From the NCBI GenBank assembly GCA_035575235.1, contig DATLYA010000316.1:32245-96244 (forward strand): a DNA stretch of 64,000 nucleotides, written 5' to 3'. The position numbers and the translations under genes are program-made. The stretch is from Candidatus Methylomirabilota bacterium. Its GTDB lineage: Bacteria > Desulfobacterota > Binatia > Bin18. Shown one piece after another: positions 11,137 through 54,549 of the stretch (positions within the stretch are counted from its first letter, which is position 1; every line of letters starts with the position of its first letter). Under the pieces are notes generated by a model that saw only the letters and a list, made by a program, of their open reading frames with translations, made no database searches and was not told where the DNA came from.

Positions 11137-11346
11137 TCGCGGATTATCCCGCTCAGGATAAATATGACAGAAGATCAACGTAAGAGATCGAAGCACAAGA
11201 ACCGCTTTTTAAGGCTTTGGCGGAGGCTCTACCAGTTAGATAAATTTCTCAGGGTCAAGGACTCTCAATTGGGCGACGTGCCGGTGGATCGGATAACCGA
11301 TCCATCGGGCCAATAGCGCCTCTTACAGTGTCGCGGGGATAGTTTA

Positions 11347-11433
11347 GAGGGGCACGGCGCGCTGTGTCCCTCCAGTGCAGAGCGCTTGTTCTGCTGGAGT
11401 ATGAGCGCCGACTTTGATCGGCAAAGTTCATTA
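11347..11433 (+). repeat. Hairpin + 57-nt repeat, copy B (downstream of luxE-like gene)
   Basis: gaggggcac..gtgtccctc hairpin, then gcagagcgcttgttctgctggagtatgagcgccgactttgatcggcaaagttcatta (11377-11433). This is 52/57 identical to copy A, in the same orientation. Confidence 0.7.
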
Positions 11434-11549
11434 GAGGTCTTGCTGAAAGCGCGAAGCTGGGTCCTAACGCTGTCCGGCACACCGGTCCAGACTTTCACAG
11501 CTACGTTTCCCCTCCCCGACTTTACGTATCACGCCCGCTCTTCTATTTT

Positions 11550-12857
11550 TTGCTTGTGTCTCTGCTCTCGGTTGCTCACCTCAATGACATAGTGGATCGA
11601 CTGCTGGTCGCCCGCGAGCGGACGCTACTCACGCGCTCAGTCAAGAACATTGCGACGCGTATTGACCGCGTTGTTGCTCGCTTCCTTGATTCTGCCTCTG
11701 CCGCGTATCAAGAGGCCGTCGCAAGACTTCCAGAGGAAACCGGGCTCTCACCGGAGATGATTCGCCACACCCTACCGCTGATTTTTCAGGAGTACCGCAG
11801 CGCAAAGCTGATGGAGCTGCTTGATAATGAACTGGGAGCAGCAAGCACACTCGACAGATTCGAGCCGACATGGCGAGGCGAGCGCCGCGCCTGCGGCTTT
11901 CCGCTGATTACCCAAGTGCTGGCTGGCAACATTCCTGGCGCCGGGCTCGACGGCGTCATCTTCGCACTGCTGGTGAAATCGGCCACGCTGGTGAAGACGG
12001 CGTCTGCGGCGCCGTTTCTTCCGCTACAGTTTGCTCGCGTGCTCAATGAGGTTGATCCGGAGCTTGGCCAATGCCTTGCCATCGTCAGTTGGTCGGGAGG
12101 AAATACCGCCTTAGAAGAGGTCGCCTTTTCCCGCGCCGATATCGTGCTGGCCTCGGGATCAGACGAAAGCCTTGCGGCCATTCGTCGGCGCACGCGTGGG
12201 AGGTTTCTTGGCTATGGTCATAAGATCAGCTTTGCCGTAATTGACAAGAATTCGTTGCCCAACGCGCCGACGCTCGCACAGCGCGCTGCTTATGATGTCA
12301 CATTGTTTGATCAACAGGGGTGTCTCTCGCCGCAACTTATTTATGTGCAAGACGGAGGCGCGGCGACTCCTCCAGAGTTCGCAGCGCTGCTCGCGCAAGG
12401 GCTTGCTTACTGGCAACAGCAGCTGCCGCGCGGTGCAATTCCACCAGCAGCAAGTATGGCGATTCGACGCTTACGAGACCAGGCTGAGTGGCAAGCATTA
12501 GCAGGAAAAGACGTGATGCTCTATGCGAGTCCGCACGGCACTGAATGGACCGTTCTCTATGAAGCTGAGCCAACGTTTGCGCCTTCACCGTTGTATCGTA
12601 CTGTGCGCGTCAAACCCTTTTACTCTTTTACGCAACTGGCCGAACTGTTGACTCCTATGCGTCCTTTTCTCGAAGCTGCTGGGGTTGCCATCGCTGCGGA
12701 ACAGTTTGCCCAAGCCGTGGAGCTGCTCGGACAAGCCGGAGTCAGCCGGATATGTCCGATTGGCGCCATGCAACCGCCTCCTCTGAGCTGGCGGCATGGC
12801 GGGAGGCCGCGCCTTGCGGATTTGGTGCGGTGGACGGAAATAGAAAGGAAAGAGTAG
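11550..12857 (+). CDS. LuxC-family acyl-CoA/acyl-protein reductase (aldehyde-forming)
   Basis: ALDH-superfamily-like 435-aa ORF with LFDQQGCLSPQ, the LuxC catalytic-Cys context. Paired with the LuxE homologue. The TTG start is uncertain. Confidence 0.75.
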   Translation: MLVSLLSVAHLNDIVDRLLVARERTLLTRSVKNIATRIDRVVARFLDSASAAYQEAVARLPEETGLSPEMIRHTLPLIFQEYRSAKLMELLDNELGAASTLDRFEPTWRGERRACGFPLITQVLAGNIPGAGLDGVIFALLVKSATLVKTASAAPFLPLQFARVLNEVDPELGQCLAIVSWSGGNTALEEVAFSRADIVLASGSDESLAAIRRRTRGRFLGYGHKISFAVIDKNSLPNAPTLAQRAAYDVTLFDQQGCLSPQLIYVQDGGAATPPEFAALLAQGLAYWQQQLPRGAIPPAASMAIRRLRDQAEWQALAGKDVMLYASPHGTEWTVLYEAEPTFAPSPLYRTVRVKPFYSFTQLAELLTPMRPFLEAAGVAIAAEQFAQAVELLGQAGVSRICPIGAMQPPPLSWRHGGRPRLADLVRWTEIERKE

Positions 12858-12888
12858 CCGGCAGCCAGTAGCCAACATGAAAAAAAAG

Positions 12889-12971
12889 GAATCGGAGAAC
12901 CGGAGACGGGGAGAAGCGGCGAGAGGTCCCTTTTCCCTCACCGTTTCTCCGTTGCGCCGATTCTCCGGTTC
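12889..12971. repeat. Long imperfect intercistronic hairpin (GGAGAA/TTCTCC-rich)
   Basis: Left arm is ggaatcggagaaccggagacggggagaagcggcgagagg. Right arm is ccctcaccgtttctccgttgcgccgattctccggttc. Confidence 0.5.
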
Positions 12972-13016
12972 GTTCTTCTTGCCGACCCTAGAGCGCTCAC
13001 GTATGTTGCTATACGT

Positions 13017-14219
13017 ATGAGCGCCCTTCGGGATGATTTTTTCCGCTTCGTTGCGCAGACCTCGCCCGAGCCGATTGGCATCGAAGTCGAGCGAGCGCAC
13101 GGGTGCATCATTGTAGACAAAAGAGGTCAGGAATACCTCGACCTGCTGTCGGGTATCGGCGTGGCGAGTCTTGGCCATGCGCATCCAGAGGTCGTACAAG
13201 CCATCAAAGACCAGGCGGACCGTTACCTTCATACGATGGTGTACGGCGAATACATTCAAGAACCACAGGTGCGTTTAGCCGCAAAACTTGCCGAAATTGT
13301 TCCTCATCCGTTGTCGATGACGTATTTCACTAACAGTGGCGCGGAAGCGATCGAAGGCGCGTTAAAGACAGCGCGCAAATATACTGGCCGGTCGCGTTTT
13401 GTCAGTTTCCACGGCAGCTTTCACGGTGATACGTTTGGCGCGTTATCGGTAGGCGGGAATCCGTTGTATCGGGCCCCGTTTGAACCGTTGCTTCCCTTGG
13501 TCTCCTTCTTGCCGTTTGGCGATTTCGATGCGATAGCTGCTATAGACGCCACGGTCGCGGCTGTGCTCATCGAACCGATTCAAGGAGAAGGCGGCGTCCG
13601 CATCCCTAACAGCGGCTATCTGGCAAGCCTACAAGAACGTTGTAAAGAAGTTGGCGCGCTGCTGATTTTTGACGAAGTCATCACCGGCCTCGGCAGAACC
13701 GGGCGGCTCTTTGCCGGCGCACACTGGAGCATCACCCCGGACATTCTCGTGCTCGCCAAGGCCCTGGGCGGCGGCATGCCGCTTGGCGCGTTTATCAGCA
13801 CGCCGGATATTATGGCGACTCTTGCTCACGACCCGCCGCTGGCGCATGTGACTACCTTTGGTGGGCATCCGGTGTGCTGTGCGGCGGGGCTTGCTTCTCT
13901 GGAGGTTATCCTGCGCGACCGATTGGCCCAACAGGCGCAAGCCGGCGGCGAAGAGTTTCTGCGGCGCTTGCGTGGACTCATCGGCACGGGCGGTCTCACC
14001 GGAGTGCGCGGCCGCGGCCTATTGATCGGGATGGACTTCGCCTCGCCGGAGGCAACAAAAAGTTTTGTCCGACGCTGTTTTGCCAGAGGCGTCATATTGG
14101 GTTGGACGTTACATCAAGATACCGTCGTGCGTCTGGCCCCGCCCCTGATTATTTCCTCTGAGGAAATCGCCCACGCCGTTGCCGTTATGCGCGAAGCGTT
14201 ACAGACGGGTGAGGCGTGA
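13017..14219 (+). CDS. Class-III (omega / acetylornithine-type) PLP aminotransferase
   Basis: LDLLSGIGVASLGHAHPEVV, TNSGAEAIEGALKTARKYTGR, LIFDEVITGLGRTG and VLAKALGGGMPLGA (PLP-Lys context). Confidence 0.85.
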   Translation: MSALRDDFFRFVAQTSPEPIGIEVERAHGCIIVDKRGQEYLDLLSGIGVASLGHAHPEVVQAIKDQADRYLHTMVYGEYIQEPQVRLAAKLAEIVPHPLSMTYFTNSGAEAIEGALKTARKYTGRSRFVSFHGSFHGDTFGALSVGGNPLYRAPFEPLLPLVSFLPFGDFDAIAAIDATVAAVLIEPIQGEGGVRIPNSGYLASLQERCKEVGALLIFDEVITGLGRTGRLFAGAHWSITPDILVLAKALGGGMPLGAFISTPDIMATLAHDPPLAHVTTFGGHPVCCAAGLASLEVILRDRLAQQAQAGGEEFLRRLRGLIGTGGLTGVRGRGLLIGMDFASPEATKSFVRRCFARGVILGWTLHQDTVVRLAPPLIISSEEIAHAVAVMREALQTGEA

Positions 14220-14295
14220 AACGTGTTGCGTGATGCGTACTGCGTATTCGCTTTACTCGTCTTTCGGCTCATGTCATAAACTTACGTCATACGTT
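14209..14295. repeat. ACGCA/TGCGT-rich repeat family, copy 2
   Basis: gaggcgtgaaacgtgttgcgtgatgcgtactgcgtattcgc ... cttacgtcatacg. Close to the reverse complement of the right arm at 22380-22420. Confidence 0.45.
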
Positions 14296-14311
14296 TTTGC
14301 AGGAGATGATC

Positions 14312-14944
14312 ATGCCGAAGGATACTGTTTCGACTCAGCAATCCCTCTCCCCCGAAACCTTCTTCAAAGAAAAAGTCGCTCCGCAGTTTAGCCGCCGCAT
14401 TGAGGACCTGCGACGGCAGATCATGACGCTGGAACAGCAGGTGCAGGAGCGCCTCACTGCCCAAGGAACAGTGCGTATTGTCGTAGAAGGCGACGGCGGC
14501 GGCGCGTGGTATTTGAACATCAACAAAGGTGAAATGACAGTCACGATGGAACCAGCGTTTCCGCCAGTCATGACCGTGTATCAGCCGCGTGGCTATTTCG
14601 ATTGGGCGGTGTCGATGACCTCTGACGCGGGACTGTTTGGCCCTGGCGCGCGGAGTACTCAAGGCGAGCTGACCAGATCACGCCTGGAGCGCTTGAAGAT
14701 GCTCAAAGGCCTGTTGCAATTTACCTTTACTCATCTCCCGGATGGCGGCGAGCACAGTTTTTGGATTTATTTCGGCGATGGCGAGCGCCCTGCTGTAGCA
14801 CAGACTGTCCTCTCCATCAAAGCGGAAGACGCACAGAGGCTTGCGCGCGGAGAATTGAACCCGCAAGTGGCGTTCATGAGCGGCATTATTAAGGTGACCG
14901 GCGATATGGCGCTCGCTATGCAGTTCGGCGCGGCGATGATGTAG
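14312..14944 (+). CDS. SCP2 sterol/lipid-carrier domain protein
   Basis: C-terminal ...LARGELNPQVAFMSGIIKVTGDMALAMQFG is the canonical SCP2 tail. ATG at 14312 is 6 nt after AGGAG. Confidence 0.7.
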   Translation: MPKDTVSTQQSLSPETFFKEKVAPQFSRRIEDLRRQIMTLEQQVQERLTAQGTVRIVVEGDGGGAWYLNINKGEMTVTMEPAFPPVMTVYQPRGYFDWAVSMTSDAGLFGPGARSTQGELTRSRLERLKMLKGLLQFTFTHLPDGGEHSFWIYFGDGERPAVAQTVLSIKAEDAQRLARGELNPQVAFMSGIIKVTGDMALAMQFGAAMM

Positions 14945-15024: not shown

Positions 15025-16233
15025 TCAGTCACGGCAGCTTCCCTCCCGACGGCGTTGAGCTCTCTGAAGGAATACCCATAATAATCCTCCAGCAAAGACA
15101 TATGTTCCGATCGCCGTTGCCCACAGGAACCATGAGAGTCGGTCAAAGAGCGCGAGCAGGAACAGCATATAGGCGAAATCTCTTCCGGTGATGCGCTCGT
15201 ACAGTTCCATCAGTGGCGTTCTCTTTCCGTCTTTTTCCGTCAGGCCTGCAGAGGAACGGAAAATCGCGACATACGCGACAGCCATTGCACAGAGCACTCC
15301 CAGCAAGGTAACGAACGCCAAGGTTATATACAGCGGCAATTGGGTCTCACGATACAGGCTCACTGCAATGCCGGGAAACAACAGCAGGTGGACAATATTG
15401 TCGGCGATCAGATCAAATTTCGCGCCGAAGTCGGACTCTAAAAACTTGAGGCGGGCCAGCTCCCCGTCACAACCGTCAATTGTTGTGGAGACCAGTAATA
15501 CCACCGCCCCGCACACGCGTGGCCAATAGTGCGGCTGTATGAGCAGCCAGACACTCAACAGCCCAAGGGCAAACGAGAACGCGGTAATCTGGTTCGGCGT
15601 GATGCGTGTATGAGCAAGTCGGCGAGTGACGGCGCGCGAGACTTTGCGATCGAGCGCCCGCGCCAGAAAGCCGTCCGTGTCGCGCCCCAAGCTCGCGAAC
15701 AAACGCCGCTCGACCTCTTGCTGTCCAAGCGTGAGCGGCGCCCATAACCCCTTATGAATGGTTACAGGGGACAGGGAACAGGGAACAGGGAACGGTGTAG
15801 GAGGTGTTCGGAGTTTCGTCCGCAATAGCGTCCACAAGCATGGTGCTGCCCCGCGATAGACGTCCGTCTCCTGGCCGGAGCCAGTCAAGAACGTTACCGG
15901 CGTTGGCGCTGGGAGTGGAGAGGTCAGCGCCTGACGGATGAATGCCGAGGTGAAAACGGCCGTACACGACAGCAGAAGGGCTTCGGCGTCTCCGATCCAG
16001 TTGCTCAGCAGCTTTTCGCTTGCTTCAATCTGATCGATGAGGGCATAGGATATCCTTTGTAACCGCGGCTCCGATGTCAAGAGCTGCTGGATTGGGAAAA
16101 TCTCAATCTGCGAGATGATCAGCCACTCGGTCACGCCACCCCTGTGGCCGGCGCAGAGTGCGCGAGCGAGCAGCGGCAGTCCCGCGACAACCATCAACGC
16201 CGCTTGATCGTGCACCAGTAAAATGGCCTTCAT
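15025..16233 (-). CDS. CDP-alcohol phosphotransferase (DIPPS-like membrane domain) fused to a degenerate nucleotidyltransferase-like N-domain
   Basis: Signature DGCDGELARLKFLESDFGAKFDLIAD (D-G-x2-A-R-x8-G-x3-D-x3-D). Preceded by DGFLARALDRKVSRAVTRRLAHTRITPNQIT, as in IPCT/DIPPS enzymes. Multiple TM helices. The N-terminal 150 aa starts MKAILLVHDQAALMVVAGLPLL. Confidence 0.75.
   Translation of the reverse strand: MKAILLVHDQAALMVVAGLPLLARALCAGHRGGVTEWLIISQIEIFPIQQLLTSEPRLQRISYALIDQIEASEKLLSNWIGDAEALLLSCTAVFTSAFIRQALTSPLPAPTPVTFLTGSGQETDVYRGAAPCLWTLLRTKLRTPPTPFPVPCSLSPVTIHKGLWAPLTLGQQEVERRLFASLGRDTDGFLARALDRKVSRAVTRRLAHTRITPNQITAFSFALGLLSVWLLIQPHYWPRVCGAVVLLVSTTIDGCDGELARLKFLESDFGAKFDLIADNIVHLLLFPGIAVSLYRETQLPLYITLAFVTLLGVLCAMAVAYVAIFRSSAGLTEKDGKRTPLMELYERITGRDFAYMLFLLALFDRLSWFLWATAIGTYVFAGGLLWVFLQRAQRRREGSCRD
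15765..15792. repeat. 4 x tandem heptamer CAGGGRA inside the CDS linker
   Basis: cagggga cagggaa cagggaa cagggaa. Encodes FPVPCSLSPV on the minus strand. Confidence 0.8.
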
Positions 16234-16239
16234 AGTTGA

Positions 16240-17253
16240 TCACAAGGGAAGACGCACGCCTCCCTGCCGATGCGACGCATATCCTTGCTGTAAAAGCGCC
16301 AGACACGTCGCGGCGGCGCGAAGATTTGCTTCACCAGAAGATGGCTCTTCCAGGGCCTGGTAAAAATCATCGAGCAGCGGCGCGAACCATTCAGGGTGAT
16401 AAGAGGAGGCGATTATCGACTCGGGAAATCGTTGCGCGCATCCGGGCTCGTCAGGGCGCTCAAGGAGTAAGGAGACGGCGTCGAAATAAATCGTTCCTTT
16501 CGTTCCGCGTACGTATCCCTCATTGGCCCGGCGGTCGGCTCTCCAGGTGAGGTAAAATTGGACGCTTGCACTCCCGCAGCTTATGGTTCCCGCCGCTGTC
16601 TCTTCAATATCAACGGCGCCGCAGCCTGGAGGTTCGAGCCGCGCGGCGATTGCAGTTGGCGCTTTTTGCAAAAGAAAAGGCGCGAGATAAAACAGATGCC
16701 ACCCATGATCTACCAGAATGCCGCCGCCGGCTATGCGCCGATCTGTTCGCCATGACCCCGAGCCATGCGATGCGCCGGCTGGGTGGGCGCGCAGGACCTT
16801 CCACGCCAAACACTCAGGCGCGCCAATCGTCTCAGCTGCGATGGTTGCCCGTAGAGTTTGCAAAAGCGGCGCGTATTGCCAATTGTGCACGGTAAAAACA
16901 GCACGGTCGCGTTCAACGGCGTACCGTTGCAGTTGTCGCATGAGTGCGGCAGAGAGCGTCAGCGGCTTCTCACATAAAATGTGCACACTCTGTTCACACG
17001 CGCGCAGCAAGACGGTGTCGTGCAGCATCGGAGGCGTACAAATATCAACGAAGTCAATCTGCTCACGCGCCAGGCAGGCTTCGATGCTACCATAACACGC
17101 CGCGTCCGGCAGGAGGGTGCGCGCCAGCTGTAACCGCTCAGGCAACGGGTCGACAACAGCTATGAGCTCGAAACGCGTGTCCTGCAGCCAGGCTGAAAGA
17201 TGGCCATGGACCGCAACATTGCCAAAGCCAATGATCGCTCCTCGATAGCTCAC
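16240..17253 (-). CDS. Gfo/Idh/MocA-family NAD(P)-dependent dehydrogenase
   Basis: GAIIGFGNVAVHGH Rossmann N-terminus and ...ILCEKPL... motif. Confidence 0.8.
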   Translation of the reverse strand: MSYRGAIIGFGNVAVHGHLSAWLQDTRFELIAVVDPLPERLQLARTLLPDAACYGSIEACLAREQIDFVDICTPPMLHDTVLLRACEQSVHILCEKPLTLSAALMRQLQRYAVERDRAVFTVHNWQYAPLLQTLRATIAAETIGAPECLAWKVLRAHPAGASHGSGSWRTDRRIAGGGILVDHGWHLFYLAPFLLQKAPTAIAARLEPPGCGAVDIEETAAGTISCGSASVQFYLTWRADRRANEGYVRGTKGTIYFDAVSLLLERPDEPGCAQRFPESIIASSYHPEWFAPLLDDFYQALEEPSSGEANLRAAATCLALLQQGYASHRQGGVRLPL

Positions 17254-18599
17254 GCCTGGTAATCCACCTTATCAGCCACGAAGTCAAAGACCTCGTCAAG
17301 AATGGCGAGGCCCGTCTCCGCCAGCTCCAAAGAAATCGTCAGCGGCGGATTGAGCCGCACACGCGGCATGTAGCCCATCATGAGTAGTCCGCGCTTCAAT
17401 GCCTCTTGAAAAATCAGCTCCGTCACTTCGCGACGCAGCCCGATTTTGGACTGACGATCCTTCACCAGATCGAGGCCGATCAACAACCCTGCCCCACGCA
17501 CATCGCCGAGAAACTCGTACTTCTCTTGCATGGCGCGCAACCGCTCAAGCATGAAGGCGCCAACCCGCCGGGCGTTGTCTACTACTCCCTCGTCTTCGAT
17601 CGTCTCTATCGTACTCAACGCAGCAGCGGCCGCCAGCGGGTTTCCCCCATAACTCGACGAGGATGCACTGGGCTGAGAAAATGGCTTCGCCGCCATTATC
17701 TCATCACTGGAGATGACCCCAGTAACGGGAAATCCATTACCCATCCCTTTACCAACAGTCATGATGTCTGGCGTCACGCCGCTTAGCGCACAGCCAAACA
17801 GGTTTCCCGTGCGGCCAAAGCCGGTGATCATCTCGTCAACAATGAACAGGGCGTCATGCTCCCGGGCGACCTCTTTCATTACGGGAAGAAACTCAGGCGG
17901 AGGAACGATATTCCCCGCCGTGCCCTGCACCGGCTCGATGAGAAACGCCGCGATGGCGCCGCCGCTCGTGTGCTTCAGGCTCGTGCGAATGAAATCGGCG
18001 CAGGCGAGCCCGCATCCTGGGTAGCGCAGGTTGAGCGGACAACGATAGCAATCGGCATAGGGCACAAGATGAGTTCCACCAGGCAAGGGCCCCCAGCCCT
18101 GCTTAAAATTGTCGCCAACGAGGCCGAGCACCCCACCCGTCTTGCCATGAAATCCGCCCCAAAAGCCGACAACCTCATATTTTTTCGTGTATGCTTTCGC
18201 CAGCCGCAGCGCCGCCTCCACCGCCTCGGCGCCGCCGCTGAACAATTGAATCCGGTTGAGGTTGCCAGGCGTCAGCGCCGCAATTTTTTGCACAAGCCGT
18301 ACGCGCGCCTCCGAGGTGAAACTCCCGACAGTCACCCGGCGTAACTGTTCTTCAAGGGCGGCAACGTAGCGGGGATGGCTGTGCCCCAGGCTCGCCACAG
18401 TTACCCCGGCAAAAAAGTCGATAAAGGTGTTGCCGTCAACGTCCGTCAGAGTTGCGCCCTCGCCGTGGTCAAAGACCACGCCAGAGAGCAGAGAGATGCG
18501 CTGAATGCCTGGCGCCAAAAACGCCTGCTCAGTCTTCACTAACTGTTGCGAGCGCGGACCAGGAACACTCGTTCTTACAACCGGAAGCTTGCCACTCAC
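17250..18599 (-). CDS. Class-III PLP aminotransferase (GabT-like)
   Basis: FIDFFAGVTVASLGHSHP, SGGAEAVEAALRLAK, LFIVDEMITGFGRTG, MTVGKGMGNGFP. 4-nt overlaps with both neighbours. Confidence 0.85.
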   Translation of the reverse strand: MSGKLPVVRTSVPGPRSQQLVKTEQAFLAPGIQRISLLSGVVFDHGEGATLTDVDGNTFIDFFAGVTVASLGHSHPRYVAALEEQLRRVTVGSFTSEARVRLVQKIAALTPGNLNRIQLFSGGAEAVEAALRLAKAYTKKYEVVGFWGGFHGKTGGVLGLVGDNFKQGWGPLPGGTHLVPYADCYRCPLNLRYPGCGLACADFIRTSLKHTSGGAIAAFLIEPVQGTAGNIVPPPEFLPVMKEVAREHDALFIVDEMITGFGRTGNLFGCALSGVTPDIMTVGKGMGNGFPVTGVISSDEIMAAKPFSQPSASSSSYGGNPLAAAAALSTIETIEDEGVVDNARRVGAFMLERLRAMQEKYEFLGDVRGAGLLIGLDLVKDRQSKIGLRREVTELIFQEALKRGLLMMGYMPRVRLNPPLTISLELAETGLAILDEVFDFVADKVDYQA

Positions 18600-19459
18600 A
18601 GCGCTTGTTGTATCCGGCCCAGCAGGTGGTCAGCAATCGCCTGCGCCGCCGCATGGCGGCAGCGAGCAAAGCTTGGCCAATCGTTTAAGTCGATCAGCAC
18701 GAGAGTTCCCTCCGCTGAGAGGATACAATCTCCGCCAAAGACTTCAAGTCCAACCGCAGACGCTGCCCGGGTCGCCAAGGCGCCGACCTGCCGGCGCGTG
18801 TGCGCTTCAACCTCGGGGCAATCAAAGAAGCAACCAGGACCAACTCCATAAAACTTGATGACCGGCCCAGGGCAATGCCTTTGCAGCAGCGCTTGGACAA
18901 TGCCGCGACGAGCAAATGCCGCGAGCGCGGCATGATATGCGGCTGCTTCTTGCACAAAGACGACATCATCCGGCTGCGTGGCGTGCACGTCGGCGCGTTT
19001 AAGCCAGAAGCCGCCTGAAAAATCTGTAGGCCCAGGCTCCCGTGCCTGCCCATCTCTAGGACGCCTCTGGCAGGTTGCCCCTACGAAAGGTAGGAAAGAG
19101 AGTGCGTGAGAAGCGTCTGCAGTATTCACCGCCCAACTTTCCGGCATCAATACTCCCGCCGCGCGGCACAGCTCAACAGTCCGCGCCCGGCGGCAATTCC
19201 AGACCGCTGTGGGACTGTTAATCACCAGTGAACCGTGAGCCTGCCAGTGTTGAAGCTTGTGCAAATTCGCTCCTCCCTGCGCCATGGAAAACACTAGCCC
19301 TGGAGGCTTGGCGTCGCTCTGCAGCTCCTCCGTGCTCCAAAGCCGGACACGAACGCCACGCCGCCCAACCTCAGCAGCGACGGCTTCAAGGATGAGCGCA
19401 TCGTCACCGGTCCGTCCGGGAGAGAACATCGCTTCCCGGTACACGCCAACCACCTCCAT
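18596..19459 (-). CDS. ATP-grasp fold protein (ligase or ITPK1-like kinase type)
   Basis: ...FWLKRADVHATQPDDVVFV...VIKFYGVG...GLEVFGGDCILSAEGTLVLIDLNDWPSF resembles the ATP-grasp C-terminal Mg/ATP site. Start taken at ATG 19459, after GAGGAGG. The ORF-track start 19588 is the alternative. Confidence 0.55.
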   Translation of the reverse strand: MEVVGVYREAMFSPGRTGDDALILEAVAAEVGRRGVRVRLWSTEELQSDAKPPGLVFSMAQGGANLHKLQHWQAHGSLVINSPTAVWNCRRARTVELCRAAGVLMPESWAVNTADASHALSFLPFVGATCQRRPRDGQAREPGPTDFSGGFWLKRADVHATQPDDVVFVQEAAAYHAALAAFARRGIVQALLQRHCPGPVIKFYGVGPGCFFDCPEVEAHTRRQVGALATRAASAVGLEVFGGDCILSAEGTLVLIDLNDWPSFARCRHAAAQAIADHLLGRIQQAL

Positions 19460-19595
19460 TGCTTCCGCCTCCTCGCTCTGCCCCGGATTGTATTTCAGGC
19501 CACAGGGTTGGTCATGAGAAAAGCCGGGAGAGAATAGCCATGGCCTGTGTACGATGTATGGAGCGCCAACTATGTTTGCGCACTCCACAGTGCGC

Positions 19596-20315
19596 TTAGA
19601 GCGGGGTTAGACATTTCTCCTCTTCAGCAAGAAACGCCTCCGCCACAGCGATATCAGAGGGACGGTCTACATCAATTACTTTAGAAATATGATGTCCATA
19701 GAGCACATAACCGCTCGCAACGAGATAGCCGAAGAACTGACGCAAGGCGGTAAAATTCCTGTGCTGCGCTGTCTCTGCCTCCCGGAACACGCTCGGTGAG
19801 AACCAATACACCCCAGCAGTCACCAGTCCACCGGTGCGCGCCGATGGACCAAGCTGAACAACGCGATAGTCTTCGGCAAGCATCGCCCATAATGGTTTTT
19901 CATCATCAACGAATGACGTAACGCCGAGCACGCCATCGGCGTCAGGATGCCGCCGCGCCGTTGCTACCAATGCCGGAATTGTCGAGGAAGGAAACACCGC
20001 ATCGACCGTACAAAGCAGAAACGAATCTGCGTCAAGATACGGCTGCAGCGTCAGAAAACTCTCCAAGGAATGCGCTGTGCTTTTGCTCAACAGCGTGACG
20101 GGCATTCCCCATTCATGCTCCCGGCAATATTGAATGACCTCGGAAAATTTCTGGTTGACGATAACAACAGCTGCTTCGATTCCAGCTTGCTGAAGCCCGC
20201 GCAGGAGACGGGCGATGAGCGGTTGTCCGGCCAGCAGCGTCAGCGGTTTTGGCGTTGTCACACCGTGCGCTCGTAAACGCTGTCCTTCGCCAGCCGCAAG
20301 GATTGCCGCTCTCAT
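19596..20315 (-). CDS. Nucleotidyltransferase (LicC / IPCT-like cytidylyltransferase type)
   Basis: MRAAILAAGEGQRLR....PKPL is the intact G-x-G-x-R signature. About 240 aa with a ...GVYWFS... and ...VIDVDRPSDIAVAE tail, as in LicC-like enzymes. Confidence 0.8.
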   Translation of the reverse strand: MRAAILAAGEGQRLRAHGVTTPKPLTLLAGQPLIARLLRGLQQAGIEAAVVIVNQKFSEVIQYCREHEWGMPVTLLSKSTAHSLESFLTLQPYLDADSFLLCTVDAVFPSSTIPALVATARRHPDADGVLGVTSFVDDEKPLWAMLAEDYRVVQLGPSARTGGLVTAGVYWFSPSVFREAETAQHRNFTALRQFFGYLVASGYVLYGHHISKVIDVDRPSDIAVAEAFLAEEEKCLTPL

Positions 20316-20752
20316 CCCTCAATCTTCCCCCACGCAATGATTTTTTGCGGCGTGATGCGCACCACAGCATTGCCAGGAAAAATGAGGTTCATCACGCGGT
20401 ACTGCGGATAACGCTCTCTCAGCAACGCAAGCGCGGCGGCGTGTTCCGTTTCAGCCTCGACGATGTGGGCGGAACCTCTGACCATCACATACGCCAACTG
20501 CGTCCAATCGTCACTGTAATCATCAATGACAAGCGCGACTTGAGGATTTTCCAGAATATTGCGAATGCGTTTCAGCGGTTTGCCAGTCTGCTTCTTAGGT
20601 TTCTCATCAACAATAAAATAGAAACGAGCCCCATCGAACGCGTAGCAGAACGGAATAACATGAGGTTGCCCATGTGCGTCGGCAGTCGCTAAGCGCGCCA
20701 CGGCGTGGGACAGAATGAAGCGGCGGATAGGTTCAGTAATTGCTATGGGCAT
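20312..20752 (-). CDS. Pyridoxamine-5'-phosphate-oxidase-fold protein (PPOX class, possibly F420/FMN dependent)
   Basis: About 146 aa split-barrel pattern: ...ARLATADAHGQPHVIPFCYAFDG..FYFIVDEKPK... Confidence 0.7.
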   Translation of the reverse strand: MPIAITEPIRRFILSHAVARLATADAHGQPHVIPFCYAFDGARFYFIVDEKPKKQTGKPLKRIRNILENPQVALVIDDYSDDWTQLAYVMVRGSAHIVEAETEHAAALALLRERYPQYRVMNLIFPGNAVVRITPQKIIAWGKIEG

Positions 20753-20778: not shown

Positions 20779-20818
20779 CACCCTCACATTCCCCTCAGGA
20801 GAGAGGGACAAGGTGAAG
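20779..20818. repeat. G/C-run palindromic repeat (CCCTC..GAGGG family), copy 2
   Basis: caccctcacattcccctcaggagagagggacaaggtgaag. Overlaps the last codons of the MBL gene. Confidence 0.4.
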
Positions 20819-21844
20819 CGAATCGACCTCCTCAGCCGATCCTTCTCCGCGAAACGCCTCTTGCGCCTCGCGATAGATCCGCTCAGCTTGCCCCGCGTAC
20901 CGCGGAGAGAAATGAAACACCACTAATTTTTTCACTCCTGCCGCACGCGCCAACAGGCCGGCCTGACGGGCGGTCAAATGGTAGCGCTTCGTGGCCTGAT
21001 CCTCGTCCTCAGTAAGAAATGGCGACTCACAGAAAAAGAGGTCTGCGTCGCGGGCCAATGTCGCAATGCGCGCGGCGTTGGCCGGGCTATACAACGTATC
21101 GACCACGTACGCGATCTTTTGTCCGCGCGTTTCTTTTATCAAGTGGCCGCGCACTTCGTGGAGGGGAAAATCACGAGCGTGTTCCACACCGTTTTTCTCC
21201 CGCCAACGTGCAGTCACAATATAATCGTCCGGCTCGTTCCGTCGCAGGGCGTGCTTCAGTTGCGAAAGCCACGGGCCAGTGGGCACGCCAAGCCGGGTCA
21301 GCATGTCCTTATCAACGTTCAGATGACTTTTTTCTTCCAGGGCAAAACCAAGGGAGTAAATCCGGTGATCCAAATGCGCCGCTCGCACGAGAAAAGCAGG
21401 TTCATCGAGCACTACGCCATCCACCAACGGCGCCTCAGTGAGCGCCTCGGGACGAAAGGCGCTGGCCGCGGGAAACAGGACACGGCGAATGCGTTCAGGC
21501 GCGATTTCGGCAGCCTCGATCACAAAGCCGTAGTTATCTACCAGATTCCAGGTGTACCCGCGCAGCTTTCCGTCCACACAGTCGAGAATCCCCGGCGGAC
21601 CATACACCACGAGTTTTTTGTCGCGCGCCAGGAACAACCGCAACAGCCGATCGAACCCAATGAAGTGATCTATGTGACAGTGCGACACAAACACATGGGT
21701 CGCGCGGAGCAGTTCCGCAGCGGGAAGGGTGTCATTTTGTCCTAAATCGAACAACAACGCTCGCCCTTCCCAACGCAGATGAATATATAAGCCCGGATCA
21801 CCAAAGGGGTTGTTCACCAGGCGAGCAGTAAATGCAGGATTCAT
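20795..21844 (-). CDS. MBL-fold metallo-hydrolase (RNase Z / RNase BN-like)
   Basis: HVFVSHCHIDHFIGF (HxHxDH), later ...FCESPF... and ...VFHFSPRY... motifs. Confidence 0.8.
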   Translation of the reverse strand: MNPAFTARLVNNPFGDPGLYIHLRWEGRALLFDLGQNDTLPAAELLRATHVFVSHCHIDHFIGFDRLLRLFLARDKKLVVYGPPGILDCVDGKLRGYTWNLVDNYGFVIEAAEIAPERIRRVLFPAASAFRPEALTEAPLVDGVVLDEPAFLVRAAHLDHRIYSLGFALEEKSHLNVDKDMLTRLGVPTGPWLSQLKHALRRNEPDDYIVTARWREKNGVEHARDFPLHEVRGHLIKETRGQKIAYVVDTLYSPANAARIATLARDADLFFCESPFLTEDEDQATKRYHLTARQAGLLARAAGVKKLVVFHFSPRYAGQAERIYREAQEAFRGEGSAEEVDSLHLVPLS

Positions 21845-21939
21845 GCATATAGGAGACGACGAGAATACACGCTCGTCAACTCCAGGGAACCGGAGTCACG
21901 ACCAGCGCCGACAGAGCCATGGTCTGAAGCAAATGAGAG

Positions 21940-22221
21940 TTACTGCCGTTTCAAAATAACAAATTGTTCCTTCATTTTGCTGACCTGATCTTGAATCGAC
22001 GGCAGATGGCGACTCTCCTTCAAGACCTGAAACACGTCGATATCCGACGCTTCGCGACGTCCTTCGGCAATTTCCCGGACGGCGTCGATGATCTCGTGGA
22101 TGACACGAGGGATTTCCCGTTGCGGAATCACTAAGTCGCCACGCCCTAGCGTCCCGCCCCAATGCGCGGCATAGGGACGGAGCACATTAAGGATTTTTTC
22201 CGTCACGCTTTTTTCAGCCAT
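21940..22221 (-). CDS. Hypothetical protein (93 aa)
   Basis: ATG at 22221 is preceded by a GGAAGGAGGAA RBS. No family recognised. Confidence 0.5.
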   Translation of the reverse strand: MAEKSVTEKILNVLRPYAAHWGGTLGRGDLVIPQREIPRVIHEIIDAVREIAEGRREASDIDVFQVLKESRHLPSIQDQVSKMKEQFVILKRQ

Positions 22222-22297
22222 TGGTATTCCTCCTTCCCCCCAGCGCCTTCCTTGCGGTTGAGCATTATCACTGTTGCCGCATGGCATTGCAAGAGAT

Positions 22298-22420
22298 GTG
22301 GAACGTGGGGTGTGGTGCGTACGGCGTGGTGCGTGTGACGTGTTGCGTAATTCGCAACATGGGATGTTGATGCTTCACGCACTACGCTTCACGTATCACG
22401 TTTCACCACCACGCCTCACG
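22298..22420. repeat. ACGCA/TGCGT-rich inverted repeat family, copy 3 (largest)
   Basis: The left half is GTGCGT-type (gtggtgcgtacggcgtggtgcgtgtgacgtgttgcgtaattcg). The right half is ACGCAC-type (cttcacgcactacgcttcacgtatcacgtttcaccaccacgcctcacg). Confidence 0.6.
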
Positions 22421-23267
22421 TTTTTTCTCCCTCGCCGCCGTATTTCTTCCCTAACTCCAGCGCTTCAGGCACGCCGAGCAGCGTGGTGATTTCACCAAAG
22501 GCGCCGGGCTCTGTGCTGTGCGTTATGGCGCCGGTGCGTTTGAGTTCTCGCATAGCGTCGCGCATCCGCAGGTAGAACACCGTCAAAGTCGCGGAGTTGA
22601 TCATGAGTTTGAAGCCCATCTTCGCGGTGTCCTGTACGGACAGCAGTTGCCCATTATACAGCAGCGGTAGCCCGCTCAGTTCTTGCACATATCGCTTCAT
22701 GTCCTCGAGCGTACGGATACCGTCAACAAAAATCAGATCAGCGCCCGCCTCGCGATAGGCATATGCCCGATTTTTGACGTCTTCCCATCCTGTCACGGCC
22801 AGCGCATCCGTGCGGGCAATAATGATCATATCCTTGCGCGCATCACAGGCGGCGCGCACCTTTGGCGCCATTTCCGCCAACGGAATGACTTGTTTCCCAG
22901 CCAGGAAACCACACCGCTTTGGCCAGACTTGATCTTCTATATGCAGCGCGGCGGCGCCTGCGGCCTCATACTCACGCACAGTGCGATAGACATTGACCGG
23001 ATTGCCGTAGCCGGTATCCGCATCGCAGATGAGAGGGATATCAACAGCGTTGGCGATGTAGCGCACGTTTTCGACCATCTCGGCCATCGTCAGCAAACCA
23101 ACATCAGGAAACCCGCGCGCCGCCGCCGTGCCGAAGCCCGTCATGTACACGGCCTCGAACCCGGCTGCTTGCGCGATTTTGGCCTGGAAGGCGTCAAACA
23201 CAAATGGAGCGACGACCATGTCCGCGCCCTGCAGCATCTGACGTAAACGTTGTCCTGCCTGTGACAT
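22416..23267 (-). CDS. Isocitrate lyase / PEP mutase superfamily enzyme (methylisocitrate lyase / oxaloacetate decarboxylase-like)
   Basis: ...VVAPFVFDAFQAKIAQAAGFEAVYMTGFG...ICDADTGYGN...ALHIEDQVWPKRCG. ATG at 23267 after AAGGAGG. Confidence 0.85.
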   Translation of the reverse strand: MSQAGQRLRQMLQGADMVVAPFVFDAFQAKIAQAAGFEAVYMTGFGTAAARGFPDVGLLTMAEMVENVRYIANAVDIPLICDADTGYGNPVNVYRTVREYEAAGAAALHIEDQVWPKRCGFLAGKQVIPLAEMAPKVRAACDARKDMIIIARTDALAVTGWEDVKNRAYAYREAGADLIFVDGIRTLEDMKRYVQELSGLPLLYNGQLLSVQDTAKMGFKLMINSATLTVFYLRMRDAMRELKRTGAITHSTEPGAFGEITTLLGVPEALELGKKYGGEGEKT

Positions 23268-23454
23268 ACGCTTCTCCTCCTTTTTGTCGAACACAGCGAC
23301 GCCGTGCTTTTACGACCAGAGATCGGCAATCGCGACAGACACGTCCGGCAGGAGAGCAAGCGCCGGCCGCTTATCTGGCGCTGAACGGATAGTCTGCCTA
23401 TAGCCGTCAGCGCCAGGTTGCCGATACACTTCTACTTCTTCTTGCGACACTGGG

Positions 23455-24273
23455 TTACTGCAGAGACTGTATGAATGACAGCAGCGCGTCAATACACGCC
23501 TGCGCGCCATCGAGGTAAATCTCGTGTCCATGGGCGTTGATGACCGCAATGCGCGCGCCAGGAATAGAATCGCGGATCATCACTTGTTCGGTCAGTGGGG
23601 TCAGTGGACTGCGTTCTGGAGCGAGCACCAGGGTTGGCACTTTTACGTGCGGCAACAAGGGCGCAACATCGACACTGGGCACGAGACGGCAAAGTCCTTG
23701 CAGCACGTGGGTGCGCGTTTTTCCCCATTCCTGCAGAATCCAGTCAATTTTCGCCGGATTGGCGCCGCCCAGGCCGCCGCCTTGTTCCATGAGCGCCTTG
23801 ACCCAGCCTGCCGGGCCGAGCTTCCCAAGAGCGGTATACCAGTCTTCGTGGCCGACCGCAAACAAGCGTTGAATGTGCGGACGAATTGCCGTGGGCGTAG
23901 CGCACAGGGTCAAACTTTTGAACCGCTCCGGCCACTGTGTCGCGAACGCGATGCCGAGAATGCCCCCGACTGACTCACCGACGTAATGCACCTGGTCAAG
24001 CCCGAGCGCATCGAGGAAGCCTTTCATATCATTGAGGAGATCATCGACCGACCACTGGTAATCCACTCCTGGATCAGCGGACTGGCCATGGCCGCGCATA
24101 TCACGGCGCAGCACTCGATACTTCCCAGCCAACGGGGGAACCCAGTGATACCAAAAGCGCGAACTACGGCCGAAACCGTGTTGAATCCAGATGGTCTCGG
24201 CCGGTTTCCACGGGTCGGTAAAATCATCGACCTCGTAGTACATTTCGTAATTGTTCGCTTTGACGGTGGGCAT
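23455..24273 (-). CDS. Alpha/beta-fold hydrolase
   Basis: IQHGFG, nucleophile elbow GESVGG, C-terminal HGHE. Confidence 0.8.
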   Translation of the reverse strand: MPTVKANNYEMYYEVDDFTDPWKPAETIWIQHGFGRSSRFWYHWVPPLAGKYRVLRRDMRGHGQSADPGVDYQWSVDDLLNDMKGFLDALGLDQVHYVGESVGGILGIAFATQWPERFKSLTLCATPTAIRPHIQRLFAVGHEDWYTALGKLGPAGWVKALMEQGGGLGGANPAKIDWILQEWGKTRTHVLQGLCRLVPSVDVAPLLPHVKVPTLVLAPERSPLTPLTEQVMIRDSIPGARIAVINAHGHEIYLDGAQACIDALLSFIQSLQ

Positions 24274-25479: not shown

Positions 25480-26088
25480 TCACTGATTGGGAAGATAGTA
25501 AGAAAATCCTGCCAGGAAAATACTGGAATTCAAGCCGGCATTTTCCTTATAAATATTAGCGTTTGACATATGACGAAAACGCCACTCCGCGCTTAACGCT
25601 ACGCTATCACTGAGAAAATACGACAGCCCGAGACCAGCCGTCTCCATGAAGGTAAATTTCCCGCCGAGGTTATAACCGCGGAGATCTTTGTACATGACCC
25701 CCAGTCCTCCAATAACATAGGGGTATACATTCGTTCCCAAATTGAAGTAATAGGTGAGAACTGGCAGGGCAAGCCCGTATTCTGTCGAACCACTTGCCGT
25801 ATTCTTTTTCAATGAGACGATCCCCGACCCAAAGGGCTCAACGCCAATTTCAAAAGACCCGGCTGGAAAGACCCACGGTTGCCCCTTAAAGAGGGTATAG
25901 CCGATATGCACGTGGCCGTGGACCATATCTACCCCTTTATTGTCAAGGCTTTCACTATAACCGAAGCGTGGTCCAAAAGACCACGTCCCAGGAGTCGGCA
26001 AGAGGTCCGCCGCATTTGCCGGAGCACACGCCCAGAGCACGAATCCCCCAACTATCGCTCCCCAAAACCGCCAATGCCATATCGCCAT
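25480..26088 (-). CDS. Outer-membrane beta-barrel, PagL-like lipid A deacylase / acyloxyacyl hydrolase family
   Basis: Signal peptide (..WACAPANA). Alternating beta-strand pattern. WRFRHMSNANIYKENAGLN (H-x-S-N catalytic context). Terminal aromatic-rich strand. Confidence 0.65.
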   Translation of the reverse strand: MAIWHWRFWGAIVGGFVLWACAPANAADLLPTPGTWSFGPRFGYSESLDNKGVDMVHGHVHIGYTLFKGQPWVFPAGSFEIGVEPFGSGIVSLKKNTASGSTEYGLALPVLTYYFNLGTNVYPYVIGGLGVMYKDLRGYNLGGKFTFMETAGLGLSYFLSDSVALSAEWRFRHMSNANIYKENAGLNSSIFLAGFSYYLPNQ

Positions 26089-54515: not shown

Positions 54516-54549
54516 ATGAATACCTCCTCTCAATATTCAGTCGCTAATG

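Follow-up and report, generated by a model that had tools for sequence, protein, structure and literature searches.

The locus and its genes

A stretch of 64,000 nucleotides (nt) from a Candidatus Methylomirabilota bacterium (GenBank assembly GCA_035575235.1, contig DATLYA010000316.1, positions 32,245 to 96,244), called the window here, carries an operon built around a cytidine diphosphate (CDP)-alcohol phosphotransferase. Six co-directional minus-strand open reading frames (ORFs) in the window's ORF list fill positions 15025–20752 (Table 1). Five of them, at 15025–20315, represent in Methylomirabilota a conserved cassette that is widespread and whose arrangement is far beyond chance. As argued below, this cassette can tentatively be read as a pathway to a membrane-lipid head group. 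Pfam and NCBIfam searches identified the families of five of the six genes, all but the ATP-grasp gene.

An earlier reading of the DNA (the sequence-only reading) had described a translationally coupled six-gene operon. Its junctions can be read directly from the sequence. The oxidoreductase and NTP-transferase genes share an ATGA overlap (20312–20315), GTGA overlaps join the ATP-grasp gene to the aminotransferase gene (18596–18599) and the latter to the dehydrogenase gene (17250–17253), and 6 nt (16234–16239) separate the dehydrogenase stop from the ATG of the transferase. Conservation, though, shows a unit of five genes beside a clade-specific oxidoreductase gene, and not a unit of six. In its longest ORF (to 19588), the ATP-grasp gene is too long; the start is the ATG at 19459, after a GAGGAGG Shine-Dalgarno sequence. 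A public gene call in a Methylomirabilota metagenome-assembled genome (MAG) has exactly the resulting protein (100% identity). With this start, an untranslated gap of 136 nt lies between the NTP-transferase and ATP-grasp genes. Rfam and tRNA scans across the window found no RNA matches, so the gap holds no known riboswitch, and a promoter and terminator scan gave counts no higher than shuffled controls.

Table 1. Genes and other features of the window, the operon first
Feature	Position	Strand	Family or remark
PPOX-class F420-dependent oxidoreductase, 146 residues	20312–20752	−	TIGR03668/Rv0121 family; PNPOx_N
Stand-alone NTP-transferase, 239 residues	19596–20315	−	NTP_transf_3, NTP_transferase; AAGxGxRL...K signature intact
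ATP-grasp enzyme, 287 residues	18596–19459	−	AlphaFold (AF2) model; no Pfam model for the family; signature gene of the cassette
Class-III (omega-type) pyridoxal-phosphate (PLP) aminotransferase, 449 residues	17250–18599	−	Aminotran_3
Gfo/Idh/MocA NAD(P) dehydrogenase, 337 residues	16240–17253	−	GFO_IDH_MocA and C3 domain; EKP and D-x3-H motifs
AF2299/DIPPS-type CDP-alcohol phosphotransferase, 402 residues	15025–16233	−	CDP-OH_P_transf; AF2 model
Catalytic motif of the transferase, D253-G-x2-A-R-x8-G-x3-D-x3-D278	15400–15477	−	Read from translation and sequence
Metallo-beta-lactamase (MBL)-fold RNase-Z-like protein	20795–21844	−	PRK02126; ends 42 nt before the oxidoreductase gene
ORF of 115 residues	21940–22287	−	No family match
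Phosphoenolpyruvate (PEP)-mutase/isocitrate-lyase-family protein	22416–23294	−	KRCG-type signature
Alpha/beta hydrolase	23455–24273	−	
LuxE	10072–11136	+	
LuxC	11550–12857	+	
Class-III aminotransferase of the divergent set	13017–14219	+	
SCP2	14297–14944	+	
PagL-like lipid A deacylase / outer-membrane beta-barrel protein	25480–26088	−	
AcrB-type resistance-nodulation-division (RND) pump	44501–47776	+	
Outer-membrane factor	51567–52904	+	With the AcrB-type pump
Aldehyde dehydrogenase beside NuoF-like and molybdopterin-oxidoreductase genes	53025–59014	−	
Tungsten-type aldehyde:ferredoxin oxidoreductase	46–1563	+	

Conservation of the cassette

The synteny analysis covered the 80 best genome loci around relatives of the ATP-grasp protein, drawn from many phyla and including Binatia, Thermodesulfobacteriota/Syntrophobacteraceae, Chthoniobacterales, Elusimicrobiota, Margulisiibacteriota, Acidobacteriota, Myxococcota, and Ignavibacteria. 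One carrier among them, Desulfoferrobacter suflitae DRH4, is in culture. A set of 5.8 billion proteins contains 1,425 relatives of the protein, an exhaustive search yields 568 clusters (50% identity) with E<=1e-30, and at least 590 GTDB species encode a relative. The conserved order is HAD phosphatase, NTP-transferase, ATP-grasp, class-III aminotransferase, and Gfo/Idh/MocA dehydrogenase, often followed by the CDP-alcohol transferase and an HpnL-like membrane protein. The NTP-transferase gene adjoins the ATP-grasp gene in 72 of 75 loci and a HAD gene accompanies it in 68 of 70; the aminotransferase follows the ATP-grasp gene in 69 of 74, and the dehydrogenase follows the aminotransferase in 58 of 63. 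A CDP-alcohol transferase is found within 10 kb in 40 of 48 loci, and half of the same number (24/48) have an HpnL-like LPG_synthase_TM protein nearby. The identical run from HAD to GFO_IDH_MocA is also seen on Pfam-annotated contigs, namely in a Chthoniobacterales MAG, in an unclassified bacterium, and on a 2.7-Mb metagenome contig. This gene order is common to about ten phyla at 37–46% identity, with 4-nt overlaps, and close relatives (57–87% identity) retain the neighbourhood.

Several cassette enzymes are also found joined in one protein. Seven protein clusters fuse the nucleotidyltransferase to the ATP-grasp domain (exhaustive protein search with a Pfam check), one protein of 802 residues unites HAD, nucleotidyltransferase, and ATP-grasp, another of 700 residues links the ATP-grasp domain to a CDP-alcohol transferase, and two verrucomicrobial loci (L062 and L063) have HAD–nucleotidyltransferase fusions; the fusion proteins outside these two loci are P0259, P0274, P0286, P0294, P0311, P0323, P0378, P0324, and P0327. 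The fusions therefore tie the HAD phosphatase, nucleotidyltransferase, ATP-grasp enzyme, and transferase into one pathway. Apparent ATP-grasp–aminotransferase fusions at L072 and L086 were rejected as over-extended ORFs, which leaves L003 as the only real join of these two.

One could suppose that the genes are merely adjacent and form no functional pathway. The 136-nt gap that splits the operon, the scans that did not rise above shuffles, and the loss of part of the cassette in some relatives would fit such a view. It is scarcely credible, though, given the same order in about ten phyla at such low identity, the 4-nt overlaps, and the several domain fusions; synteny and fusions effectively refute it.

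The CDP-alcohol phosphotransferase

The sequence-only reading had reported a full CDP-alcohol motif in the transferase and had likened the enzyme to DIPPS rather than to PgsA or PssA, and both statements are borne out. The motif runs from D253 to D278, on transmembrane helices 2 and 3, and its residues D253, G254, D256, G257, A260, R261, G270, D274, and D278 do not vary among 66 family members. The lead-in of the protein, DGFLARALDRKVSRAVTRRLAHTRITPNQIT, matches AF2299 and AfIPCT/DIPPS residue for residue in the PDB alignment. With 50.7 bits against a cut-off of 22, the Pfam model CDP-OH_P_transf (PF01066) places the protein in the superfamily. Among the NCBIfam models IPCT/DIPPS leads with 82 bits, followed by AIPS (54), PIPS (43), PssA (28), and PgsA (22). 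The match to IPCT/DIPPS (NF041135) covers the C-terminal half only and stays under the equivalog cut-off of 580; the PIP synthase and archaetidylinositol-phosphate synthase models (NF045883 / NF040950) gave 43.4 and 53.8 bits against 170 and 180, PssA (TIGR00473) 28.1 against 107, and PgsA (TIGR00560) 21.7 against 109. The transferase is thus below the cut-off of every named equivalog tested.

Searches of the PDB give the same ranking. The single sequence matches AF2299 at 83 bits and AfIPCT/DIPPS at 53 bits, and the family profile scores 122 bits with AF2299, 89 with IPCT/DIPPS, 35–51 with PIPS, about 20 with PssA, and about 18 with CPT1/CEPT1; PgsA is not among the matches of this profile. 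The AF2 model (pLDDT 92.5) superposes on AF2299 and DIPPS, and a Foldseek search with it returns AF2299 first (E 2e-14) and then IPCT-DIPPS. The transferase does not group with PgsA or Pss, and its neighbours are kept across phyla. The label AF2299-like is a resemblance class only, and gives the class of enzyme, not its function.

About 180 extra residues precede the CDP-alcohol phosphotransferase domain. The protein consists of a degenerate nucleotidyltransferase domain (about residues 1–170), a juxtamembrane helix (189–206 in the model), and a six-helix membrane catalytic domain (213–232, 236–263, 268–297, 301–326, 340–362, and 366–401). Foldseek matches the N-terminal domain to RmlA and MurU, and hhalign aligns it with the NTP-transferase family at 93.8% probability. 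In this alignment, a deletion of 12 residues removes exactly the AAGxGxRL...K loop, so that the domain has lost its catalytic loop. The protein therefore combines a DIPPS architecture with a dead cytidylyltransferase domain, and a separate gene encodes the active nucleotidyltransferase.

Distant homologues of the long transferase (about 35% identity) are found at L005 (5971–11658), L006 (5221–12577), and L007 (6662–15982). Their neighbours include a radical-SAM protein of 323–325 residues, an LPG_synthase_TM protein, a second CDP-alcohol transferase, and an MMPL transporter. In L007, the homologue lies inside an hpnK-J-I-M-N-like block, beside an LCAT-like acyltransferase.

The nucleotidyltransferase, dehydrogenase, and aminotransferase

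The separate nucleotidyltransferase had been described as intact and as LicC/IPCT-like. Its intactness stands. The signature ILAAGEGQRLR...K23 has the form (L/I)xAAGxGxRL with the lysine, residues A7, A8, G9, G11, R13, L14, and K23 are invariant in 25 orthologues, and NTP_transf_3 (58.8 bits) and NTP_transferase (41 bits) are both above their Pfam cut-offs. The specific likeness to IPCT (46 bits) does not stand, as the protein resembles a generic sugar/alcohol-phosphate nucleotidyltransferase and scores nearer to sugar-1-phosphate enzymes (GlmU-N, AglF, MurU, RmlA) than to IPCT in NCBIfam. Its relatives in the PDB are MurU, GDP-mannose pyrophosphorylase, LicC, and IPCT. The predicted role is that of a cytidine triphosphate (CTP):alcohol-phosphate cytidylyltransferase.

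The dehydrogenase has the CEKPLT (EKP) and VDHGWH (D-x3-H) motifs of the Gfo/Idh/MocA family, and its two Pfam domains, GFO_IDH_MocA (70.9 bits) and C3 (60.2 bits), are above their cut-offs. The best NCBIfam model is inositol 2-dehydrogenase IolG (TIGR04380), at 61.4 bits against a cut-off of 355. Its relatives in the PDB are generic sugar/inositol dehydrogenases, and it is predicted to be a cyclitol/polyol dehydrogenase. The aminotransferase matches Aminotran_3 (PF00202) over its full length (331.9 bits, model positions 11–402 of 403) and contains the segments DIMTVGKGMGNG and DEMITGFGRTG, with the PLP-lysine region read from the translation. The nearest relatives in the PDB are archaeal and bacterial gamma-aminobutyric acid aminotransferases, and ethanolamine-phosphate phospho-lyase comes lower in the list. 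This enzyme is predicted to aminate the carbonyl formed by the dehydrogenase. For all three proteins, the PDB sequence searches returned generic relatives only.

The ATP-grasp protein

The ATP-grasp protein of the window has no Pfam match. Its AlphaFold model, made with 55 homologues, has a pLDDT of 90.9, shows the three-domain ATP-grasp fold, and finds 601 PDB matches at E<=1e-3, of which the top 50 are all ATP-grasp enzymes. Ddl, LysX, ArgX, PsnB, DcsG, and RimK stand at the top (TM about 0.68, E about 1e-14). Residues K154, K202, D244, and D257-x-N259, which include an ATP-binding lysine and the Mg-binding D/E-x-N, are invariant. Profile searches of the PDB gave PsnB 27 bits, ITPK4 22, RimK 20, and ITPK1 17–18, with E-values of 7e-4 for ITPK4 and 0.007–0.018 for ITPK1 over the C-terminal motifs only; the KFYxxG and DLNxxPSF motifs are common to the protein and ITPK4. 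Weak Pfam matches occur among the 55 members to ATPgrasp_ST (24), Ins134_P3_kin (PF05770; 19, none at the threshold, best E 0.008), and RimK (5). The RimK/LysX-type model TIGR00768 scores 29.5 bits against a cut-off of 143, over the last 60 residues only.

The sequence-only reading had left this protein between a carboxylate-amine ligase and an inositol-phosphate kinase. The fold comparison puts ligases nearest, and the weak sequence signal and the nucleotidyltransferase fusions lean to an ITPK-like kinase. The same pathway could be drawn with the ATP-grasp enzyme as an amide ligase that acylates the new amine with an amino acid or another carboxylate, giving an N-acyl-aminocyclitol phosphate head group. 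The top Foldseek matches are all carboxylate-amine/thiol ligases, the best PDB profile match is the graspetide ligase PsnB, 24 of the 55 members weakly match the predicted ligase family ATPgrasp_ST, and the gene directly precedes and overlaps that of the aminotransferase. A trio of HAD phosphatase, aminotransferase, and ATP-grasp ligase is also known from the Campylobacter capsule (the Cj1438 amidoligase), and MshC acylates an amine in mycothiol synthesis. This version is possible, if doubtful. The ATP-grasp gene persists, with identical invariant residues, in three loci without the aminotransferase and dehydrogenase (L041, L070, and L082), it is recurrently fused to a nucleotidyltransferase, the usual partner of a kinase, and no carboxylate-supplying gene is conserved near the cassette.

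A trio of kinase, HAD phosphatase, and nucleotidyltransferase would follow the logic of nucleotide-heptose synthesis. There is also a precedent in ITPK1, an ATP-grasp enzyme that phosphorylates the Ins(3)P made by inositol-3-phosphate synthase, or MIPS (PMC6900528). Because of this precedent, the pairing and occasional fusion with the nucleotidyltransferase, and the persistence of the gene without the amination genes, the protein is predicted to be an ITPK-like cyclitol(-phosphate) kinase, which we rate somewhat above an amide ligase.

The alcohol and its supply

The unassigned ORFs of the 80 loci were clustered and the recurrent clusters annotated. MIPS is the only precursor-supplying enzyme that recurs among them. 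Its gene is linked to the cassette in about 13 of the 80 loci, all Desulfobacterota, and in 10–11 Desulfobacterota loci it is the first cassette gene, co-directional and directly upstream of the HAD gene. This gives indirect support to the amination of a cyclitol, which the sequence-only reading had named among its options. The transferase scores best with four NCBIfam models, each of which stands for an enzyme that uses inositol phosphate. Because of the MIPS linkage, these relatives of the transferase, and IolG as the best (weak) model for the dehydrogenase, an alcohol derived from myo-inositol is the leading candidate for the activated alcohol.

An alcohol other than a cyclitol is unlikely but has points in its favour. 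A sugar, glycerol, or pentitol phosphate would lead to another amino-alcohol phospho head group or to the decoration of a surface glycan; examples would be CDP-serinol from CDP-glycerol and aminopentanetetrol phosphate from pentose phosphate. The narrow spread of the MIPS linkage, the closeness of the nucleotidyltransferase to sugar-1-phosphate enzymes, and the preference of class-III aminotransferases for terminal aldehydes and amines would all suit such a substrate. So would the Polysacc_synt flippase and glycosyltransferase genes that adjoin Verrucomicrobiota cassettes and the HpnK-type deacetylases, which point to N-acetyl-hexosamine chemistry. On the other side are MIPS, as a translationally adjacent first gene and the sole recurrent precursor supplier, and the inositol-phosphate enzymes that are the best-scoring characterised families for the transferase. 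In addition, a literature search for aminopentanetetrol gave lipid surveys only, with no genes or pathway.

The acceptor: Solute or membrane lipid

The sequence-only reading had allowed for either a solute or a head group. Of the two, a membrane head group is favoured by the HpnL-like (flippase-like), HpnJ/K/I, MMPL, MlaC, and Spt-like neighbours of the cassette. Because the cassette recurs beside membrane-lipid genes, a soluble solute of the di-myo-inositol phosphate (DIP) kind is less likely than a lipid head group. Such a solute would be an aminated analogue of DIP or of glycero-phospho-inositol, joined as by DIPPS from a CDP-alcohol and a phosphorylated alcohol and then dephosphorylated by the HAD enzyme. 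The nearest characterised relatives of the transferase (IPCT/DIPPS and AF2299) and the near-constant HAD phosphatase (68/70), which fits a phosphorylated intermediate, speak for it. DIP-type solutes belong to thermophiles and hyperthermophiles, however, while the carriers of the cassette are, from the titles of their records, apparently bacteria of soil, peat, freshwater, and sediment. With HpnL-like, MMPL, MlaC, OEP, HpnI/J/K, Spt-like, and flippase genes repeatedly flanking the cassette, a soluble product is very unlikely.

The hopanoid genes deserve a closer look. HpnJ beside the cassette exceeds the equivalog cut-off of 577.6 in Desulfoferrobacter (739 bits), Binatia (716), and Margulisiibacteriota (719), and HpnK near the cassette scores 312 bits against a cut-off of 233. 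In Binatia, Margulisiibacteriota, Syntrophobacteraceae, and Myxococcota, HpnJ and HpnK genes stand among those of the cassette, and in the same groups genes for an HpnI-like glycosyltransferase and for HpnL-like, MlaC (HpnM-like), MMPL (HpnN-like), and OEP proteins recur. This suggests that the cassette is linked to the modification of extended hopanoids or to the HpnL family. A recent preprint places HpnI and HpnJ in SHC-positive genomes only and assigns no function to HpnL (bioRxiv 10.1101/2025.07.29.667474).

The cassette could accordingly decorate extended hopanoids, with a bacteriohopanepolyol or its glucosamine or cyclitol-ether derivative as acceptor and a phospho-cyclitol hopanoid as product. 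The HpnJ and HpnK scores, the recurring HpnI-, HpnL-, HpnM-, and HpnN-like genes, the confinement of HpnI/J and the vacant role of HpnL, and the distant transferase homologue inside an hpnK-J-I-M-N block would agree with this. It is distinctly unlikely, however. No hpn or shc gene was found in the window, the verrucomicrobial copies keep company with sphingolipid-like genes instead, one locus (L010) has HpnK/L-like genes with no other hopanoid gene within 8 kb, and we know of no phospho-hopanoid.

Four loci show hopanoid genes among those of the cassette, with HpnJ and HpnK-, HpnI-, HpnL-, HpnM-, and HpnN-like genes at L037 (7091–19172), L031 (8568–18794), L018 (37–10050), and L072 (5120–16577). 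In Desulfoferrobacter (L037), the order is HpnJ, HAD, nucleotidyltransferase, ATP-grasp, aminotransferase, Gfo, HpnL, OEP, and MlaC.

In the Verrucomicrobiota, the cassettes adjoin Spt/BioF-like, KDS-reductase-like, and GNAT genes. The cassette is embedded there in a block (L008, L009, L022, L025, L033, L040, L049, L052, L066, and others) with a Polysacc_synt flippase, a KDS-reductase-like SDR, a second IPCT-like nucleotidyltransferase, a DIPPS-like transferase of 411 residues, a GNAT protein of 376 residues, a short AIPS/PIPS-like transferase, and an Spt/BioF-like aminotransferase. This block resembles a sphingolipid locus that carries two modules for phospho-alcohol head groups.

A proposed pathway

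Taken together, the genes suggest, as the likeliest though still tentative account, a route of the Kennedy type that would end in a phospho-(amino)cyclitol head group on a lipid. The fuller form of the cassette reads (inositol-phosphate synthase), HAD phosphatase, nucleotidyltransferase, ATP-grasp enzyme, class-III aminotransferase, Gfo/Idh/MocA dehydrogenase, CDP-alcohol phosphotransferase, and (HpnL-like membrane protein). In the first step, a cyclitol phosphate, probably a myo-inositol phosphate, would be prepared by the ATP-grasp enzyme as an ITPK-like kinase and by the HAD phosphatase where present. The nucleotidyltransferase would then use CTP to make a soluble CDP-cyclitol, and the dehydrogenase and aminotransferase would swap one ring hydroxyl for an amine. 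Finally, the AF2299/DIPPS-type enzyme would move the phospho-(amino)cyclitol from cytidine monophosphate onto a hydroxyl of a membrane lipid, which, depending on the lineage, might be diacylglycerol, ceramide, or a hopanepolyol.

That the cassette is a conserved functional unit is well supported; from its genes we infer its chemistry, namely which alcohol is used, in what order the steps run, that the ATP-grasp enzyme acts as a kinase, that CTP is the nucleotide, and which lipid is the acceptor. Of the sequence-only reading, which had proposed a modified phosphodiester derived from a CDP-alcohol, the DIPPS-like transferase and its conserved neighbours carry over, and the identification of IPCT and the membership of the oxidoreductase do not.

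A number of observations weigh against this pathway. The window has no MIPS, HAD, HpnL/K-like, or hopanoid gene, and the MIPS linkage is limited to one phylum-level group and possibly goes back to a single ancestral arrangement. The ATP-grasp model is closest in structure to carboxylate-amine ligases (Ddl, LysX, RimK, PsnB), with no ITPK among its top 50 Foldseek matches. The family scores of the nucleotidyltransferase, aminotransferase, and dehydrogenase are far under every equivalog cut-off, and the known inosose aminotransferases of the aminocyclitol antibiotics are of the DegT/StsC type, while the one in the cassette is of class III. The literature search found no inosamine-phosphate lipid, and to our knowledge none has been reported; a search for the gene combination found no description of the cassette either. 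Close relatives also show decay. In L004, the dehydrogenase is reduced to its last 59 codons (9801–9977) upstream of an intact transferase, and in L003 (6674–8967) the NTP-transferase is shortened and the ATP-grasp enzyme runs on in frame into an aminotransferase whose residues 1–141 are missing. The cassette is dispensable in some close relatives. Since it decays there while the transferase stays intact, the transferase may not depend on the cassette and may be able to use another CDP-alcohol.

A bolder form of the proposal, which is rather unlikely as a whole, is that hundreds of bacteria of soils, peat, and sediments make zwitterionic phospho-inosamine lipids, a new lipid class, on glycerolipid, ceramide, or hopanoid anchors by a full Kennedy-type route. 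The first committed step would fall to a bacterial inositol(-phosphate) kinase of the ITPK-like ATP-grasp kind, acting with a HAD phosphatase and a cytidylyltransferase. The makers may include Binatia, Methylomirabilota, Desulfobacterota, Verrucomicrobiota, Myxococcota, Acidobacteriota, Elusimicrobiota, and Margulisiibacteriota. "Unidentified aminophospholipids" are routinely reported from soil and sediment phyla without being explained, and if the pathway is right, the cassette encodes the synthesis of a new polar head group by the phyla that dominate these habitats. CDP-inositol (DIPPS-type) chemistry would extend from the osmolytes of thermophiles to the membranes of mesophiles, and AF2299-like transferases and the HpnL family near hopanoid genes would have a first functional context. 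The cassette may also reveal inositol-phosphate-kinase-type ATP-grasp enzymes in bacteria, as ITPK-type chemistry has so far been regarded as eukaryotic and Asgard-archaeal (PMC6900528). For lipidomics, the calculated mass to search for would be 0.984 Da below that of the matching phosphatidylinositol, with a head-group fragment or loss of C6H14NO8P (259.046 Da, calculated).

The oxidoreductase and other neighbours in the window

The oxidoreductase is a PPOX-class protein by PNPOx_N (66.6 bits, Pfam) and TIGR03668 (141 bits against a cut-off of 119, NCBIfam). Its gene is present only in L001–L004 and L091–L093 and lies near the cassette in none of 48 loci elsewhere, so it is a clade-specific, translationally coupled passenger and no conserved member of the cassette. 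In one relative, L004, the overlap is instead with the MBL-fold gene upstream of it. The genes from the MBL-fold protein to the alpha/beta hydrolase form a conserved upstream block (20795–24273) on the same strand as the operon, and the transcription unit may start well upstream of the six genes. A phosphonate pathway through the PEP-mutase/isocitrate-lyase-family protein was considered and rejected. The protein reads IEDQVWPKRCGF, which we take to be the signature of isocitrate-lyase/methylisocitrate-lyase-type enzymes and not the EDKx5NS of true PEP mutases, and its gene is unlinked to the cassette outside the clade.

Divergent to the operon (10072–14944) is a LuxE-LuxC-aminotransferase-SCP2 set, which also occurs near the transferase in L001/L002, L003, and L091–L093. 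From a fatty acid, it would be expected to make first a fatty aldehyde and from that a fatty amine, and it includes a lipid-carrier domain; it could thus provide the transferase with a lipid partner specific to this clade. A phosphatidyl-N-glyceroyl-alkylamine lipid of the Deinococcus/Thermus type is not supported as the function of the cassette, since LuxC is near it in 0 of 48 loci elsewhere; such a lipid is still a possible local partner of the transferase. The PagL-like outer-membrane protein makes the organism a diderm. Farther away are the RND pump with its outer-membrane factor, an aldehyde dehydrogenase with redox genes beside it, and a tungsten-type oxidoreductase (Table 1).

Comparison with known systems

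The best match of the transferase overall is AF2299 of Archaeoglobus fulgidus (PDB 4O6M/4O6N/4Q7C), which likewise has a cytoplasmic N-terminal domain before a DGxxAR membrane core. It differs in being archaeal and has an overall identity of about 20%. These PDB entries name no physiological substrate. IPCT/DIPPS (PDB 4MND) comes second by sequence, profile, and fold. It shares with the transferase the architecture of a nucleotidyltransferase fold and a six-helix CDP-alcohol transferase, the catalytic motif, and the juxtamembrane lead-in DG(F/W)(I/L)xRxxNRKxS...PNQxT. IPCT/DIPPS is a bifunctional CTP:inositol-1-phosphate cytidylyltransferase and CDP-inositol:inositol-1-phosphate transferase; in the cassette, the N-terminal domain lacks the GxGxRL...K loop and the cytidylyltransferase is a separate gene. 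The cassette also differs in its ATP-grasp, aminotransferase, and dehydrogenase genes, its mesophilic bacterial carriers, and its lipid-type genomic context. For AF2299 itself, we know of no physiological substrate.

The ATP-grasp protein has in common with ITPK1 and ITPK4 its fold, the KFYxxG and (F)G(x)D...DxNxxPSF motifs, and sub-threshold profile matches. It differs from them in having no match at the Pfam threshold and in a fold search that puts ligases first, and its family probably lacks the many basic residues to be expected of enzymes with polyphosphate substrates. In chemical logic, the run of MIPS, HAD, Gfo, aminotransferase, and ATP-grasp genes parallels the scyllo-inosamine branch of streptomycin, spectinomycin, and hygromycin A synthesis, which uses MIPS, a phosphatase, a Gfo/Idh/MocA inositol dehydrogenase, an aminotransferase, and an inosamine kinase. 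That branch, unlike the cassette, has DegT/StsC aminotransferases, a kinase that is not of the ATP-grasp type, neither CDP activation nor a membrane phosphotransferase, and secreted antibiotics as products. The hpnI-hpnJ-hpnK genes for bacteriohopanetetrol cyclitol ether, which are interleaved with the cassette in several phyla and were not found in the window, would resemble it in placing an amino-cyclitol head group on a membrane lipid. HpnIJK make the cyclitol from N-acetylglucosamine on the lipid and, unlike the cassette, without phosphate or CDP chemistry.

The closest published analogue is a putative inositol-lipid cluster of Bacteroides vulgatus and Prevotella, in which the genes of an NTP transferase, a CDP-alcohol phosphatidyltransferase, and a HAD hydrolase lie close to those of MIPS and an LPG-synthase-like protein (Heaver et al. 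2022, PMC9246714). The likeness is one of gene content, and the B. vulgatus cluster is without the ATP-grasp, aminotransferase, and Gfo/Idh/MocA genes of the cassette. The two have in common MIPS, the HAD protein, the nucleotidyltransferase, the CDP-alcohol transferase, an LPG_synthase_TM-like protein, and a Kennedy-like logic that would run through CDP-inositol.

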